In this document: in pieces, positions 1 to 60,708 of the stretch
Layout: each line of letters opens with the position of its first letter
How positions within the stretch are numbered: the stretch's first letter is position 1
Assembly: GCA_951406725.2 (NCBI GenBank)
Contig: OX597816.1
Location: 54,250,001 to 54,314,000 of the forward strand
DNA length: 64,000 nt
Direction of reading: 5' to 3'
DNA from: Octopus vulgaris
Lineage: Eukaryota
Made by a program: the position numbers and the translations under genes
Notes under the pieces: model-generated
Seen by the model: only the letters and a program-made list of their open reading frames with translations
Databases searched by the model: none
Told to the model about the DNA's origin: nothing

Positions 1-3000
1 AGTATAAATGTACGTGGCTTGGGGTCGCCTTGGAAACAAGGCTACCTGTTAAATGACATCAAGTCACTAAATCTGAATATCATAGCCATCAGTGAGACCA
101 GACTCCACAGCTTGCGGGCACTCCAGCACATTTTCGGTACACATTTCAACATTTATTTTTCTCCGTGTCTACCGAGAATGGGCGGAGGTGGCACCGCGGT
201 GCTTATCCGGAAGAGTCTGGATCTCAAAGTAAGAGCAAATTTCCTAGACCCGGAGGGTAGGCTGGTCGTTTTGGATGTCGATGGCAGCAATGAGTGAGCT
301 TTTCGACTGATAGCAGTTTATGCTCCGTCCTTAACAGGCCGACCAGATTTCTTTCGACGTCTAGAGTCTTTCATGGGAACGTCTCGTCCTTTACTTTTAG
401 TGGGGGATTGGAATGCCACCCTGGACACGCATCTAGACTACGTGGGCAGAGATAGCAATAGAAGGGGATGCAAATGCCTCAAAGACCTGCTCAGACGTTT
501 CCAACTGTCTGACAGGTACCGACTGGACCACCCGAATGTGCCAATGTGGACATGGAGTAACCGCATCGGGTCGTCCAGATCATACTTAGATAGAGTATTC
601 TGTAGGACAATAGATAAAAATAGTGTAGGTTGTCCACAATTTCATATAGTCAGTTACACAGATCACAAGTTTGTGACTTGTACACTTGACTTAGATAAGA
701 CACATAGGCAGGGTCCTGGTTACTGGAAACTGAACGCGTCTTTTACAGCACGACAGGTTTACAGGGACCGGATCAGCACATTAGTTAAGAGAGCTTTGAC
801 AGGTACCATCATCAACAACAGATGGTGGTATGCCCTAAAAAAAGCGATTAAAGCAGAATCAGTCAGATACAGTAGAGCCCTAGCATTAGACCGAAATAGA
901 ATAGAGGGAGAATTAGTTAAGGTTTTAGAAGAAGCACTTAGAACTGGCATCGCGTCCAACGTGCTGGCGGCGAGATTGGCCCTCGACCAACACCTCAACG
1001 CCAAACACGAGGGATGCGTTGTCAGAGCTAGGATGCGTGCTCTGAGGAACGAAGGAGTTGGAGCCGCCCAAGAGGCCCGAGTGGTGGAGACGCAACGAGG
1101 CAACAGAGCCACCATCAAGTCTCTTATAGATGAACAGGGGCGCGAATTGCTCGAGCCTAAAAGGATGTGTGGGGTTTTTCAACAACACTTCACCCAACTG
1201 TTTGGGACAAGTGGTGAGTCAGAAAGCAGAGTGGACTTTAGTGCCTACCTGCATGCCTTGCCACGACTCTCAGCAAGGGAGGTGGAGTCTTGTGAAAAGC
1301 CTATCACAGCTGCGGACGTACAGGATGCGATGGTAGGCTGCGCGAGAGACAAGTCACCAGGCTTGGATGGTCTGCCCTACGAATTTTATTTTCATATGCC
1401 AGACTTGTTTGGAGGCGTCTTGGCAGCTGTCTACTGCAACTGGCAGCAGAACGGGAGTATTCCTGCTTTTGTAAAGCGAGGAGCAGTGGCACTGATCAAG
1501 AAAGACCCAAACAAGGGGGACATCATAGATAATTTCAGGCCCATCACTCTGCTCAACGCAGATTTGAAAATTTTGGCCAAGGTGTTAGCCGAGAGGTTGG
1601 CGCTTGTCATCAAGAAACTAATCGACAAGGCGCAAACATGCGCCGTGCCGGGTAGAAGTATTCATGACAACCTCCATCTGATGCGCTACATCATAGACAG
1701 GGTAGTTAAAAATCCTGGCATGGGTGGGGCGCTGATCAATTTGGATCAATCAAAAGCCTTCGATAGGGTAGACCATCACTACTTGGAGGCTGTCCTTAAA
1801 GCGGCTGGTTTCGGTCCAGTTTTCCGCGGTTGGATCGCTGCCTTATACAGCGGCATCCGCTCAGTAGTTCGCGTAAATGGTCATCTATCCAGACCTTTTA
1901 ACATCATGCGTTCGGTTCGTCAGGGATGCCCCCTCTCATCGCTGCTGTATGTACTTCTCTTGAGCCACTACTGCGGAAACTGGCGACGCTGAGGGGCATC
2001 CCACGAGAGCTGGGATGCGGGAGGAGCGTGTCTGCATACGCGGATGACGTCACCGTCATAGTGTCGAGCTACGAGCACATCGAGCTGGTCGGCGAGACAC
2101 TAAAAGAATACGAAGCGGTAACGGGAGCAAAAATTAACCGGGAAAAGTCAGTGGGCTTGCGGCTCGGCACCTGGAGAAGCAAGCCCATGCCGTCCAACAG
2201 CGTCTCCATCGTGGGACGCTGGACGGACGGACCGGTTAAATTGCTCGGGGTCTGGTTCGGTCCGGACCTCCAAATGGAGAAGAACTGGGGCGAGATAACG
2301 ACTAGGGTGGCTACTCTCACCCAGAAATGGGCTGAGAGAAAGCTATCCCTAAAAGGTCGGGCGGAGGTGGCGAACGCGTACATCGCATCCGTCATCGAGT
2401 ATCGTCTGACCGTCGTGCCTTGTCCCGACCCTACCATCACCAAACTGGAACGTATACTCTTTCGCTTCTTGTGGAAGGGAAACGTTCCGATGGTTAGGCG
2501 ATCCATTTGCTGCCAACACCCGCTAAATGGAGGGCTGGGCATGCCGTGGTTGATGATGCGCAGACATGCGCTGAGACTGCGACATCTCCGGCGCTTCATA
2601 GACAACGGTGAACAGGTGTGGTCGCCTTTTGTGCGGCGCGCTTTCCCGCAGCTCGTCTCCTTGGACGAACTACAGTCATGGATCAAGCAGAGACCGAGGC
2701 TAGGCGAATGGCACCGTGAGTGTCGCGTTGCTCTCAAGCAACTCTGCCGTCCGGGATCGAACTTGTGCGACTCCATCACAACAAAGGCATTCTATAGAGG
2801 ATTAGTGGAGGGGAGGTGCGACGACGAACTCGGGCAGAGTCTGGGCGTCGACGAGGAACACCTGACCCGCCTGTTCAGGACAACTTTCGGGCCGGGACCT
2901 ATGAACAATCACCAAAGATCCCTGGCCTGGCAGTGCTATCGAGAAGCATTACCTGTTCGGGATAAGCTCTACAGACACGGTTCCAGACACACTGGACCGA

Positions 3001-3422
3001 CTTGCCCGAGATGCGGTCAGAGCGACGAAACCGTTCTGCACGCACTCGTGCAATGTCCAACCATTTCCGACCTGTGGGCTTATGCCGAACGGCTGCTGTC
3101 ACGTGTGGGACTAATCCGCCTATCGGCCGAGTCTATCGTGAGAATTGCTCCGCCCCCTTCCCTCAACCGGGAAGGCAAGGCAGTTTTCATCGTACTGGTG
3201 GCCATGGTGAAAGAATGTGTGTGGTGGACTCGAGCGAAAGGATTAGAGACAAACACTTACCTCTCTGGCCAATCGCTCATCAACTTTTTCAAGTACCACT
3301 TGAAAAGGAAGGTGAGAATGGAGAGGGAAGTTTTGTCTCGCGAAAGATTCAAAAAAAGATGGGTGAATGTTGCAAAGATGGTGCGTGCTAGTAACGAAAC
3401 CATTTTGAGCATGATCCTGTAG
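1..3422 (+). pseudogene. LINE ORF2 (endonuclease-RT-zf-RVT) with one in-frame stop (295-297) and one frameshift (~1957)
   Basis: Frame 1 continues past TGA as AFRLIAVYAP. At ~1957, LYVL joins LEPLLRKL in another frame (a 1-nt deletion). ORFs 19-297, 373-1992 and 1926-3422 tile one protein. Confidence 0.9.
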
Positions 3423-17978: not shown

Positions 17979-18339
17979 AATGCAAAGTTTAAAAAAATAA
18001 ATAAACGAGAAGAAATCGAACCGGTGAGTTCGTTAAGAAATAAGGCAATAAAAGAGAATGGGTCTTCCCAGACACAATAACATATATATATATATACACA
18101 CACACATATATATATAATGGAGAGGTTAATCAATCGACAAACATCAGCCTATAAACATTCATTTGGATCTATTTATTAATTAATTACAATCCTATGTATA
18201 TATGTATAAGTAATCAAAATAAACAAATAAACAAGTAAAAAGATAAATAAAAATAAATAAATGAATAAGGATAAATGAGTAAAAATTATAGTAGTATATT
18301 GGATATTTATTATCCCTGAGATGGTTGCTTAACCTCTAA

Positions 18340-18406
<67 letters not shown>

Positions 18407-18412
<6 letters not shown>

Positions 18413-18537
18413 GTAAAGAGTGAAAAAACGACAGAAGGTTTAAATATTAAAAAATATATATATTTGCGTCAATATGTCTGAAGAATATTAGAAAATTAAA
18501 AAAAAAAATTTTTTTTCTCTTATAATGACATAATTTA
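18407..18537 (-). mobile_element. 131-bp 3'-terminal fragment of the Penelope-like family at 57.3-60.2 kb
   Basis: Near-identical to 57300-57430 (AAAATAGTAAAGAGTGAAAAAACGACAGAA...TATAATGACATAATTTA); abuts (TA)n. Confidence 0.92.
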
Positions 18538-18582: not shown

Positions 18583-19712
18583 ATATATATATTAAAGCAG
18601 GAAAAAAAAGCCAAACAATTTGGCAAGTTTGGCATAACATAACCTCTAACTCATATATATTTAAAAGCAGAAGAAAAAGCCAAACAATTTGGCAAGTTTG
18701 GCATAACTGTACTGACTACACCTGGGAATCGAAACCGGTGCGAAGAATTGACTCAGCTGTGACCCAATGTCTCTTTATGGTTATCTCTTCCTTTGCAGAA
18801 TATCAGAGTAAACAGTGACGCTTTGGTGGGTGAGACATTAACAATTAAACAAATTAGACTAGGGAAGAGCTTTGATCTGCTAAAAAGAGCAGCCAAATTT
18901 CCCACATAGGAGATCCTACCTTTCTTTTAAATCGGACCAATTCAATAATGTAATCCAAGATACACTACTCCTAAAAAAAAAAAAGAAACGAGATGGTCAT
19001 GGCTTCAATGCATCTTGTCATACGCCTGTTGGATCTGAACAGATTTCGGGTTAAACTACACCGTCATCATAACCACCACCGCCATCACCAACACCATTGC
19101 CACCTTCACCATCAACGACAACAACGATAACAGCTAACTTTTGTGCTTATCGGGTTAATATTTTACCTACAGTATATCTGCAAAAGAAACTGCTTCCAGG
19201 TGTAGCAATCTGTGTCTATTTTCAGAATCCATACAGAAGAAAATGGAGCTCAGCAATGCTTCAATAACCCCTTTACCACATTTATACAACCTCTTCATGT
19301 TTCTCAATTTACATACGATCCCTGTACAAGTAATTCCTTTACACGGAACAACCCTGTTAACGCTTGACTGACTGGTTCAGTGGAGATGAGAGCAACAACT
19401 ACGGCGCCGACATCGCACGTCTTCACCTGAAAATACCGCTTCTTAACCTAAAATAATAAATTTGTACTCTTGAGCGTCCACACATTTTCTCATTTCTTGA
19501 GACTAGTTTTGCATGAAATAGATTTAATTTTGGCAAATTCAATCGTATGTTTTAAGGGAAATTTTCAAGAAATGGAAGGAGCGGGTCATTTAGGGAATAT
19601 TAGAACCATATAAAAATTAATGCAATATTTATACATACATACTCAGGGGAAGGTTTATGATAATTAAAAAGTAAAAGAGACACATACATACATACATACA
19701 TACATAAATACA

Positions 19713-54581: not shown

Positions 54582-55720
<1,139 letters not shown>

Positions 55721-55734
55721 TATATATGTATATA

Positions 55735-56890
55735 TATATTCCTCCCTGTGCCTGTTAAATCGTATGTCCCTGGCGTAAGGATTTACTTCTACACACGCCA
55801 GGTTAATTTTATTCATCCCTAGTCAAAAGACACCTGTTGTTATGTCCTGTTAATTGCATTTGTATTTGCGTAACGTTTTCCTGTTTCTTTCCGTCCTTGT
55901 TTTCGTATACATTCGCTGATTTCTTCCAAGGAATCTAATGCTCTTAGTTTATTTTTTCCTTTGGGCTGGCCAGATTGGAGCAATCTCAAATATAACCAGC
56001 CGAAATTGCAAAAACAATCTGGAACTCGACTGAGGATAGAAAACTCCAAATGACCCGTCTGTGTTTGTTTTGTATCGTCTGTCTGGATGTTTTGTTATCC
56101 CTTTTTCGTATCACCTAACTGTGTAGATGTTTTGCGTTCTTGTCTCATTTTTGTATTTTTTATATATAAAATATAGCGGCGTACGTACACTTTGGTCTCT
56201 TATATGTAAGTATATATACATCTAAATTATGAACGTCTCTATTATCCTATTCTTTCATTCTTTCCCTCTTTCTATTAGCCCATTCCCACTTCGTTCATTC
56301 CACTCTTCGTTCTTTCGTTGGTCCTCTCTCATATTTCTTGGCCTTCTCTTCATGCTCACTTTCCCTCCTCTTGTCTTTTCATTTTTTTCTCGCCCATCCT
56401 TAATTCTCCTATCTCTCTGCTTCTACCTCTTTCTCTTTTCTCCTCACATGACCGGTGTTCGGCCAGGTCTGACCTTTCTTTTGGTTCGACTACCATCCGT
56501 AGAACATCTATATTCCTCCCTGTGCCTGTTAAATCTTATGTCCCTGTTGTAAGGCTTTACTTCCACACACGCCAGCTTAATTTAATTCGTCCTTAGTCGA
56601 AAGACACCTGTTGTTATGTTCTGTTAATTGCATTTGTATTTGTGTAACAGTCTCCGTTTTTTTCTGTCCTTCTTTTCGTAATGCCTACGTTGCTTTTTTT
56701 CCAAGGAATCTAATGCTCTTAGCTTAGCTTTTCCTTGGGGCTGGCCAGATTGGAACAACCTCGAGTATAACCAGCCGAAATCGCAAAGATAATCTGGAAC
56801 TCGACTGAGGATAGAAAACTCCGAATGAGCCGTCCTTGTTCTTTTTGTAACGTCTGTATGGATGCTTTGTGTTCTTGTCCCATTTTTGCG

Positions 56891-56900: not shown

Positions 56901-56928
<28 letters not shown>

Positions 56929-57071
56929 CACAATCAAGGAGTAGAAATGACGTATTCCAAATGCACAAGGCAATGTAATCCGATGGTAGAAAGAATTCCG
57001 CGAATTAGGTACCCCAAAGTCAGTTGGCGATGTTGTTTCCTCCGTCTTCCTTTTCTATTGGACTTTCCTCT

Positions 57072-57108
57072 GTTTCTGAAGAAGAGCTTTGCTCGAAACG
57101 TTTAACCA
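57072..57108 (+). ncRNA. Minimal hammerhead motif with weak stem I
   Basis: CUGAAGA-A-GAGC(UUU)GCUC-GAAACGUU; palindromic AAACGUUU; lies in a ~290-bp segment between (TA)n tracts. Confidence 0.65.
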
Positions 57109-57210
57109 TCTTTCTTTCCTTCCCTGAGCGTCTGCTAATACTTTACATGTACCACATCCTAAGGTTGTTGTTTTTTGTGTTTGTTGTTTTTTTTTTGTAT
57201 TTTGGGATTT

Positions 57211-57296
<86 letters not shown>

Positions 57297-57297
<1 letters not shown>

Positions 57298-58749
57298 AGA
57301 AAATAGTAAAGAGTGAAAAAACGACAGAAAGCTTAAATGTTAAAAAATATATATATTTGCGTCAATATGTCTGAAGAATATTAGAAAATTTAAAAAAACA
57401 CATTTTTTTCTCTTATAATGACATAATTTAAAAGAAAGACCGGTTTCGCGTGTAGCTTTTCAAATTTCTTGTGACGTTATGTTTATGTTGAATAGAGTTA
57501 TCGTGTTTATGTTCCGGTGAGTTCTAAATAAGGGGAGGTAGTGGGTGATTTCTTCCGGTGTAAGGGAGATAATCGCTTAAAAATTTTTTCCTTTCCCTTA
57601 ATGTGAATTTCTCTGTATCAGTATGTTCGGATGGTTGAGTCTGGGCTTGTACTTTTCAATGAAGAATGTTTCCTTGTTTAGTCTAATTTGTGTTGATGAT
57701 CCGAAAGCACATTGATAAAATGGAAAGATTAAAATTGTGGTAGTAGTTGCTTTGCGCATTTCTCTATGTGCTCACTAAAAGGTATCATTCTATATTCTGG
57801 GAATGCAATCTGTTGTCGATGCAGTGTGCATCTACGTCTGAGTAATAGTCCTGTGGAACCCACGTAGTCTTGGTGGCAGCCCGAGCATTTTATGACATAA
57901 ATTATGTTTTCAGAGGCACAAGTAAAGTTAGATTTGATCTTGAATTTCTGTCCCTCTTTAAAGAGGAATTCTGATCCTTCTAGCAGGTTAGGACATGTTG
58001 CACAGTTCGATCTACCACATTTTTTTACTTTTGCATCCGTAATTTCAGAAGACAATTTTGCCTTTATGAGAATCTTTTAAAGTGATTTAGGCTGTTTGTA
58101 GCTTTTAATGATTTGGTGTATGTTTAGAATTTCCTTTAATTTGGGGTTTTTATGAAGTATTGGTAAATTCTGGGTGATGATGGTGAAGGCTTCTTTGTTT
58201 CTGGGGTTGTATGTAGATATGTAAGGTAGTATTTTCGGGGAAGGTGTGTTGTTGTGTTGAACTTTTCTTAAAGTTTCTATGTTGATTTCTGTTGCACGTC
58301 TGATCCCATCCTCTATGAGTTGAGCTGGGTAATGTCTGTCAATTAGGGTGTTTTTGAGTTCTTGCAGTCTAAAGTTCCTGGTATTTTGTTCTGACACTAT
58401 TGTGCATATCCTTCTTGCAAGGTTGAAGGGGATGTTTGTTTTAGTGTGTCTTGGGTGGCATGAATTAAAAGAAGGTATTGTTTGGCGTCTGTGGCTTTGT
58501 AAAAAATGTCTGTTTCTATTTTAAGGTTAATTTTTTAAATTAGTATATCCAAGAACGGGAGCTCCTTTTGGTTGTATTCCATTGTAAATTGTATATTTGG
58601 GTTTATGCTGTTCAATAGGTTTTTAAATTTTAGGAGTTTATCTGTGTTTTCATTCCAGAGAATAAAACAATCGTCTAAGAATCGTTTCCAATTTTCTTTT
58701 ATGTATTGAGAGGGGGTTTCCAAAGATTGATAAAGATTCCTGGTAAATG
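57297..58749 (-). mobile_element. Penelope-like (Neptune-type) element, 5'-truncated; left arm of palindrome
   Basis: WKRFLDDCF, LPFLDILI, SCHPRHTKTNIPFNLARRI, CGRSNCATC linker, GIY-YIG-type IIYVIKC..C..DYVGST..LRRR..LHR. Confidence 0.95.
57432..57470 (-). ncRNA. Hammerhead-like motif in the PLE 3' region (left arm)
   Basis: Mirror image of 60047-60085. Confidence 0.6.
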
Positions 58750-60220
58750 GGATACATGGAAATAATCATTTACCAGGAATCTTTATCAATCTTTGGAAAT
58801 CCCCTCTCTCAATACATAAAAGAAAATTGGAAACGATTCTTAGACGATTGTTTTATTCTCTGGAATGAAAACACAGATAAACTCCTAAAATTTAAAACCT
58901 ATTGAACTGCATAAACCCAAATATACAGTTTACAATGGAATACAACCAAAAGGAGCTCCCGTTCTTGGATATACTAATTTAAAAAATTAACCTTAAAATA
59001 GAAACAGACATTTTTAACAAAGCCACAGACGCCAAACAATACCTTCTTTTAATTCATGCCACCCAAGACACACTAAAACAAACATCCCCTTCAACCTTGC
59101 AAGAAGGATATGTACAATAGTGTCAGAACAAAATACCAGGAACTTTAGACTGCAAGAACTCAAAAACACCCTAATTGACAGACATTACCCAGCTCAACTC
59201 ATAGAGGTTGGGATCAGACGTGCAACAGAAATCAACATAGAAACTTTAAGAAAAGTTCAACACAACAACACACCTTCCCCGAAAATACTACCTTACATAT
59301 CTACATACAACCCCAGAAACAAAGAAGCCTTCACCATCATCACCCAGAATTTACCAATACCTCATAAAAACCCCAAATTAAAGGAAATTCTAAACATACA
59401 CCAAATCATTAAAAGCTACAAACAGCCTAAATCACTTTAAAAGATTCTCATAAAGGCAAAATTGTCTTCTGAAATTACGGATGCAAAAGTAAAAAAATGT
59501 GGTAGATCGAACTGTGCAACATGTCCTAACCTGCTAGAAGGATCAGTATTCCTCTTTAAAGAGGGACAGAAATTCAAGATCAAATCTAACTTTACTTGTG
59601 CCTCTGAAAACATAATTTATGTCATAAAATGCTCGGGCTGCCACCAAGACTACGTGGGTTCCACGGGACTATCACTCAGACGTAGATGCACACTGCATCG
59701 ACAACAGATTGCATTCCCAGAATATAGAATGATACCTTTTAGTGAGCACATTGAGAAATGCGCAAAGCAACTACTACCACAATTTTTAATCTTTCCATTT
59801 TACCAATGTGCTTTCGGATCATCAACACAAATTAGACTAAACAAGGAAACATTCTTCATTGAAAAGTACAAGCCCAGACTCAACCATCCGAACATACTGA
59901 TACAGAGAAATTCACATTAAGGGAAAGGAAAAAATTTTAAGCGATTATCTCCCTTACACCGGAAGAAATCACCCACTACCTCCCCTTATTTAGAACTCTC
60001 CGGAACATAAACACGATAACTCTATTCAACATAAACATAACGTCACAAGAAATTTGAAAAGCTACACGCGAAACCGGTCTTTCTTTTAAATTATGTCATT
60101 ATAAGAGAAAAAATGTTTTTAAAAATTTTCTAATATTCTTCAGACATATTGACGCAAATATATATATTTTTTAACATTTAAGCCTTCTGTCGTTTTTTCA
60201 CACTTTACTATTTTCTATAT
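58747..60220 (+). mobile_element. Penelope-like (Neptune-type) element, 5'-truncated; right arm of palindrome
   Basis: Starts MGYMEIIIYQES..WKRFLDDCFILW; RT thumb; ORF 59462-59920 carries the Cys linker plus GIY-YIG nuclease ending RLNKETFFIEKYKPRLN; ~300-nt 3' region. Confidence 0.95.
60047..60085 (+). ncRNA. Minimal hammerhead-like motif, U3:A8 variant, in the PLE 3' region
   Basis: AAGAAA-U-UUGAAAA-GC(UACAC)GC-GAAA-CCGG-UC-UUUCUU; palindromic ACCGGU stem III; one extra U between stem I and the core. Confidence 0.6.
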
Positions 60221-60297
60221 ATTCACCCACGTGCTTTCACAAACCAACTTTCTTATCTATATATATGTATTTATATATATGTATATATATACATATG

Positions 60298-60360
<63 letters not shown>

Positions 60361-60362
60361 GC

Positions 60363-60444
<82 letters not shown>

Positions 60445-60464
60445 GTGTGTGCATGTATACATAC

Positions 60465-60515
<51 letters not shown>

Positions 60516-60708
60516 CATATATATGTGCATGTATACAAGAATTCTATAATTATGAGCATAATTATAATTAGGGTTCAGCAAAATTTGCTTCATCACATAC
60601 CGAAATTTAGAAATAGCAGTTAAAATACTATTCTACTACCATCAGATATCTCCCAGACAGCAATACTCTACAACTCATGCAGGTATCATTATGTATATGC
60701 ATGTGTGC

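Follow-up and report, generated by a model that had tools for sequence, protein, structure and literature searches.

A 2.9-kb palindrome in the genome of Octopus vulgaris consists of two broken, 5'-truncated copies of a Penelope-like element (PLE) that lie head to head inside a TA microsatellite. This pair may well derive from a single insertion in the course of which the cDNA, after pairing with itself over 4 nt, served as its own template, a reading to which we assign a probability of about 0.5. The palindrome lies within a window of 64,000 nucleotides, the whole stretch of DNA that was analysed (contig OX597816.1, positions 54,250,001 to 54,314,000), and all coordinates given below are those of the window. 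Its parts, together with the sequence on either side, are as follows.

57215-57294 (no strand): left flank, the (TA)n microsatellite target, read from the sequence
57285-57297 (+): candidate target-site duplication (weak), left copy, 10-13 nt, TATATATATG plus up to 3 nt
57295-58749 (-): left arm, a 5'-truncated PLE copy with a tail-less 3' terminus
57428-57471 (-): candidate minimal hammerhead-like motif, U3-A8 variant, left arm (pattern scan)
58746-58749 (+): AATG, native 4-nt microhomology with CATT at 58767-58770 (contig loose ends and P0002 motif)
58750-58766 (+): 17-nt loop, RT coding sequence native to the right copy
58746-60222 (+): right copy, a 5'-truncated PLE with RT motif 5 and thumb, Cys linker, GIY-YIG EN and 3' UTR (72-75% identity to P0002 in tblastn)
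58980-58982 (+): premature stop common to both arms, where the family reads A in 95.8-99.2% of its depth (position 58980)
59046-59051 (+): 1-nt frameshift common to both arms (frame compared with P0002; family contigs have an extra T)
59438-59440 (+): premature stop common to both arms, where the family reads A in 99.4-100% of its depth (position 59438)
59498-59524 (+): C-x4-C-x2-C linker between RT and EN, a Neptune/Nematis feature (alignment A1)
59612-59875 (+): GIY-YIG endonuclease carrying a CCHH motif (PF01541 in Pfam at E=0.003, short of the curated threshold)
60046-60089 (+): candidate minimal hammerhead-like motif, U3-A8 variant, right arm (pattern scan)
60223-60257 (+): AC-rich PLE 'tail' of about 35 nt, at the right end only (family depth)
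60258-60530 (no strand): right flank, an interrupted (TA)n microsatellite that opens with the candidate target-site duplication at 60258-60270

Sequence comparison reveals an inverted repeat with a 17-nt loop (58750-58766), the stem closing at 58749/58767. Over 1458 alignment columns, the two arms (57298-58749 and 58767-60219) agree at 98.1%; 16 substitutions and six internal indel events give a total of 22 arm-to-arm differences across the palindrome (57298-60219), and a seventh listed indel is an alignment-edge effect and was left uncounted. At around 1.45 kb, the repeat is far too long to be expected by chance. The arms point outwards from a centre at which their 5' ends meet, and the coding content of each is the 3' half of a Penelope-like ORF (1.15 kb of ORF within each arm), this half being all of the ORF that is present in the window. 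In tblastn searches, both arms match residues 274-654 of P0002, the closest of 80 longer homologues (73% identity), at 72-79% identity. The alignment starts with M274 at 58747 and, because it runs through the loop, the loop is native sequence of the right copy. The initial annotation of this DNA, which had described two arms of about 1.45 kb around a 17-nt loop of native coding sequence, is borne out on both counts.

A number of features point to the type of element involved. Pfam detects RVT_1 above cut-off in both P0002 and P0003 and GIY-YIG in P0002 (E=6e-4), with the EN encoded in the window scoring for GIY-YIG below cut-off only (E=0.003). The CCHH residues (C205, C208, H227 and H244) are invariant in 8/8 aligned sequences; EN+ Penelope-like elements are defined by a CCHH motif with two Cys between GIY and YIG (PMC8557442). 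The linker C161-x4-C166-x2-C169 is invariant in alignment A1, and a CX2-5CxxC linker between the RT and a C-terminal EN is given in the same source as a feature of the Neptune clade that is common to Nematis. Penelope/Poseidon elements are described there as lacking this linker, Naiad as having an N-terminal EN and Hydra as lacking CCHH (PMC8557442). The Cys linker, the CCHH motif and the placement of the EN therefore exclude Penelope/Poseidon, Naiad and Hydra and, going by the published clade definitions, leave an element that is probably of Neptune or Nematis type. Together with the match to P0002, the linker and the CCHH motif support the Neptune-like identity proposed earlier. A hammerhead-like core pattern (U3-A8, with a 2-bp stem II and a palindromic stem III) is found at 60046-60089 and mirrored at 57428-57471; a U3-A8 hammerhead variant has been described in PLEs (PMC4209133). 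An Rfam search returned no hammerhead family match, its 47 sub-threshold matches being miRNA-like hairpins and one sRNA. Three contig runs (X1, X2 and X4) covered 58730-60260 only, with the left junction outside, and aligned 6127, 1659 and 2793 contigs to this region; because so many align, the family is taken to be high-copy, an estimate drawn from contig counts in place of a direct copy-number figure.

The two ends of the palindrome are not alike. Beyond the mirrored part, the right arm continues for about 35 nt (60223-60257). This stretch has high family depth in 3/3 contig runs, on account of which we assign it to the element and not to the flank, and a variant at 60226 is carried by 68 contigs in X1. 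The tail is absent from the left arm and from a third 3'-end copy in the window (18400-18537), so the mirrored part ends at a terminus of the element itself, with 35 nt still to go to the end of the tail, and no flank is mirrored. On these points the initial annotation, in which both arms ended at the same 3' terminus and the outer flanks differed, has to be revised: the right arm extends about 35 nt further than the left and, with the tail assigned to the element, what borders the insert on either side is a (TA)n tract. A (TA)n tract adjoins both ends of the palindrome and also the 3' end of the third copy (n=2 loci only), in keeping with the preference of the Neptune clade for inserting into (TA)n microsatellites. 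The insert edges carry a direct repeat of 10-13 nt (57285-57297 and 60258-60270) that is no more than compatible with a target-site duplication, because 8/22 TA tracts in the window share its TG ending and chance could also have produced it. The third copy itself is a short, tail-less 3' end of the same family that ends in (TA)n; close to it, about 20 nt of flanking sequence around 18332-18352 recurs near 18640-18660.

What lay upstream of the break in an unbroken element can be read from the family contigs. Loose ends before 58746 terminate in GCGAACCTAAC in two contigs from X4 and four from X2 (among the 18 of 774 that were listed; further upstream variants may exist). Followed by the window's next letters, GCGAACCTAAC reads A-N-L-T-M-G-Y in frame, and P0002 has APVIANLTMGY at the same place. 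Because the contigs and P0002 both read ANLTMGY, the native microhomology at the turn is AATG (58746-58749) with CATT (58767-58770), that is, 4 nt. The initial annotation had proposed a snap-back on an ATG/CAT microhomology that would reach about 9 nt if the element read L-V-M-G-Y. This reading is ruled out by the contigs and by P0002, L-V-M being seen in more distant homologues only. What survives of the proposal is a short match at the turn; the snap-back itself is inseparable from two primings on one RNA, because both routes give the same sequence. Matches of at least 4 nt occur in 2.0% of random point pairs lying 10-40 nt apart on the same arm, and matches of 9 nt in none. With a predicted energy of +1.1 kcal/mol, the 4-bp terminal stem is unstable on its own and would for that reason need help from protein. 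There is no TA or other filler where the arms join.

Both arms are alike at 58824, 58931, 58980, 59438 and 59451, positions at which the family differs in 94.7-100% of depth in 3/3 contig runs. Two of these five substitutions, at 58980 and 59438, create stops, the second of them in a codon that specifies K in 7/7 aligned homologues, and a frameshift near 59046-59051 (a change of frame with respect to P0002) is likewise common to both arms. The shared premature stop noted initially (KSL*KILIK) is that at 59438 and is confirmed, with the stop at 58980 and the frameshift now added to it. On the strength of these six near-private lesions, the arms share a private common ancestor, and either the template was dead before it was duplicated or one arm later overwrote the other. 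The shared stops need not, in other words, date from integration, and the notion of a clean snapshot of that process is not supported, given that the arms differ at 22 places and that the template was dead or the arms were later converted. None of the six shared lesions is found outside the inner 47% of the arm (KS p=0.043, a post hoc test made among the 40 of 96 family variants listed, so that outer shared lesions may lie beyond these), and the arm differences are evenly spread (KS p=0.34), one of them, at 58928, being just 3 nt from the shared lesion at 58931. Judged by the family majority, at least 7/16 substitutions fall on the right arm; the change at 60184 (judged by the third copy) and two frameshifts fall on the left. 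A comparison of inner with outer positions for changes private to the right and to the left arm (Fisher p=0.057) was dropped, since the left-private class rests on unlisted variants. A<->T changes account for 9/16 arm substitutions and 2/5 shared private ones, against 12% in 25 other repeat pairs from the window that are older, probably richer in G+C and not independent of one another.

How might such a structure have formed? In the sequence of steps that we favour, the PLE protein would nick the (TA)n tract and prime cDNA synthesis at the tail start site, at what is now the right end, the template probably being the RNA of an already dead copy mobilised in trans. Synthesis would halt after about 1.5 kb, whereupon the cDNA would pair CATT at its 3' end with AATG across 17 nt. 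Extension from this end would then copy the cDNA back as far as the family's second, tail-less terminus, where the product would be cut and joined to the other end of the target. Neutral divergence of the arms, by about 1.5%, would have followed.

Several observations favour this order of events. Folding back automatically predicts a near-symmetric turn such as that around the 17-nt loop, and the 4-nt match, at the 2.0% chance level, counts in its favour. So too do the end of the mirror, at a terminus also used by the third copy, the lack of any mirrored flank, the six lesions common to both arms, and a neighbouring structure at 54660-55240 that has the same polarity, a one-sided extension and a small hairpin at its turn. 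Other observations weigh on the opposite side. Folding back does not by itself account for the stop at the tail-less site, and the clustering of lesions in the inner 47% fits later conversion better than it does a uniformly dead donor. The weak target-site duplication, the lack of sequence across the centre, the unstable stem and the A<->T excess also count against it, as do the lack of residual depth in X4 for five alleles of the window and an arm-to-arm distance close to that between either arm and the family majority.

The overall layout has precedents. A head-to-head mirror with a one-sided tail is already known in PLEs, and the palindrome is a real-looking, well-formed example of it. A typical EN+ PLE insertion, as outlined by Craig et al. 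(2021, PMC8557442, Fig. 2 legend) and Goubert et al. (2022, PMC8969392), comprises an inverted 5'-truncated copy and a tail. The palindrome resembles this in having an inverted 5'-truncated copy at its 5' end, a tail in the 30-40-bp range restricted to one end, insertion into a microsatellite and a terminal hammerhead (a candidate here) but differs in that there is no second tandem unit and in that the mirror spans the whole insert, with 1.15 kb of ORF in each arm. In the Pen2a/Pen2 elements of Adineta vaga, inverted pLTRs, a one-sided 31-bp tail and target-site duplications of 8-10 bp have been described (Arkhipova et al. 2013, PMC3846280), and the same report of 2013 describes mobilisation in trans and reads the frequent head-to-head palindromic junctions as the outcome of self-priming. 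These elements share the inverted head-to-head junction and the one-end tail with the palindrome, but their inverted arms are pLTRs of about 180-220 bp, compared with 1.45 kb here, where the microhomology at the turn can moreover be read from family copies. Non-autonomous PLE sequences are reported to be mobile (PMC9977147; bioRxiv 10.64898/2026.07.22.740005).

Parallels further afield are less close. In Drosophila virilis, Penelope carries terminal repeats that are inverted, large and variable in length (Schostak et al. 2008, PMC2377424), but it belongs to the Penelope/Poseidon clade, lacks the Cys linker and is described as occurring in copies that are partial tandems, unlike the palindrome. 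The Anolis Poseidon element studied in vitro resembles it in its AC-rich tail (bounded there by two RT start sites), its AT-rich target and, going by the candidate motifs here, its hammerhead, which lies 110-170 nt from the termini (Frangieh et al. 2024, PMC11167929), although it too is of another clade and the main text of that paper gives no account of how inverted copies form. The palindrome shares with L1 twin priming and L1 cDNA self-annealing fold-backs a microhomology of few nucleotides and, at the insertion, either a hairpin or a second priming (PMC11702581); as presented in that source, however, L1 twin priming inverts sequence but leaves the 3' end unduplicated, and L1 fold-backs rearrange chromosomes instead of forming self-contained inserts. 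Our literature search found no measurement of turn-point microhomology in whole-insert, ORF-bearing mirrors, although older papers on Penelope structure, or supplements, may hold cases. The origin of PLE inverted repeats has been named as a task for an in vitro system (PMC8557442). One locus cannot settle it, the palindrome being blurred by age and by its shared lesions, but it does offer a clear single-unit example; its family is high-copy, the turn can be read, both termini are fixed and the microhomology can be measured.

The foremost alternative to folding back, with perhaps half its probability, is twin priming on one RNA. Here, a PLE dimer would prime at both target ends, using the tail start site at one and a tail-less site 35 nt upstream at the other; both cDNAs would reach the same broken 5' end of the RNA and anneal via AATG/CATT, giving a product identical to that of folding back. 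Twin priming accounts directly for the one-sided tail, and does so better than folding back, and a single RNA template accounts for the shared lesions. In vitro, the Poseidon protein cuts and extends both target strands, two RT start sites bound the tail and a dimer is predicted (PMC11167929), but these data come from another PLE clade. The arms of the neighbour at 54660-55240 are unequal, at about 390 versus 185 nt, as twin priming would allow. The symmetry of the palindrome is less well accounted for: one cDNA would have to displace the other and the two would have to stop almost equally far along, about 20 nt apart in 1.5 kb. In L1, furthermore, twin priming is described as yielding inversions with only short internal duplications (PMC11702581). 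The more specific proposal that a whole-insert mirror with a tail at one end is the footprint of a PLE dimer using both RT start sites on one RNA is one we advance tentatively, and as slightly less probable. If true, double priming on one RNA would unite the origin of PLE tails with that of inverted repeats; dead transcripts, too, would be mobilised in trans in this way, and the A<->T excess would be the trace of damage suffered by long intermediates while single-stranded. A genome-wide count of this family could separate folding back from twin priming.

A further explanation addresses the shared lesions only and is compatible with either route of formation. The template could have been active at the time of insertion, the stops arising in one arm and spreading to the other by centre-out conversion or, in the assembly, by polishing. 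We consider this doubtful, at odds similar to those of the dimer footprint. The confinement of all six near-private lesions to the inner 47% of the arm speaks for it, with the reservations already given (a post hoc test on 40 of 96 variants), and the residual depth for the window letter at 59451 in X1, at 165, is about twice the 60-100 seen for single-variant contigs, as expected with two carrier arms; this figure counts any third letter and is accordingly weak. Speaking against conversion are the even spread of the arm differences and the proximity of one of them to the shared lesion at 58931.

It is improbable that one decayed insertion was later inverted and duplicated by DNA repair or replication (through snap-back or template switching) with PLE enzymes playing no part. 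The shared lesions of a dead copy would follow at once from such an event, a short microhomology at the turn is typical of repair and replication events, and the TATATAT before the tail could have allowed a switch into the (TA)n flank. Set against this, the copy ends at a terminus that the family uses elsewhere (in the third copy) and omits exactly the tail, and the same layout is found at 54660-55240 and is typical of PLEs.

Equally improbable is an assembly or library fold-back artefact. No contig crosses the centre of the palindrome in the three contig runs (58730-60260), whether among the joints listed (15 of 36) or the pieces listed, leaving the centre without independent sequence. Several alleles of the window are unseen in other samples: those at 59016, 59208, 59361, 59438 and 59451 have zero residual depth in X4, which was read whole, although holes of this kind prove nothing. 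The A<->T spectrum is odd, and 3/6 indels lie in homopolymers. A mirrored read would, however, mirror the tail and the flank too, and neither is mirrored here; each arm has changes of its own, as set out above; and the asymmetry agrees with known PLE biology.

That the (TA)n tract was hit twice, independently, would suit a high-copy family in a region that gathers PLE fragments in TA tracts, and the arms are about as distant from each other as either is from the family majority (the initial annotation having regarded arms closer to other copies than to their partner as a sign of independence), but this explanation is rejected as very improbable on the six near-private lesions that both arms share, on truncation points only about 20 nt apart and on a join devoid of filler.

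Inverted repeats also occur among related elements elsewhere. Of 69 related metagenome loci, distant relatives found mostly on short contigs, five have an inverted repeat of at least 40 nt, and in none of these are the arms ORF-bearing. In one locus (L049, 1313-1501), the centre of a near-perfect 189-nt palindrome joins two hammerhead-like pLTR halves on a contig with the remnant of a related PLE ORF. In a second (L019, 2704-2956), a near-perfect palindrome of 253 nt occupies the end of the contig and follows a related PLE ORF on its downstream side.

Within the window, several other structures are found in the neighbourhood of the palindrome. That at 54660-55240 is a second TA-flanked, head-to-head structure with a one-sided extension of about 60 nt and with polarity like that of the palindrome. 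Its long arm comprises two 105-bp tandem units with hammerhead-like motifs, followed by the extension; its inverted arm (185 nt) has no extension, and at the turn there is an 8-bp hairpin with a 3-nt loop. This is probably a pLTR-only insertion of another PLE family, an identity that we infer, as there is no ORF. Directly beside the palindrome, a segment between two (TA)n tracts (56927-57214) contains a canonical minimal hammerhead core at 57068-57114 and is likely to be the 3' end of a third PLE family. A nearly intact LINE-like ORF2 is present at 298-3422 in two overlapping frames (endonuclease, RT and C-terminal Cys motif). Copies of a repeat of about 365 bp, 87% identical and each followed by TA-rich sequence, are located at 55732-56095 and 56506-56870. 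Finally, the sequence at 55388-55715, directly after a (TA)n tract, has what we take to be tRNA-like A and B boxes and is presumably SINE-like.
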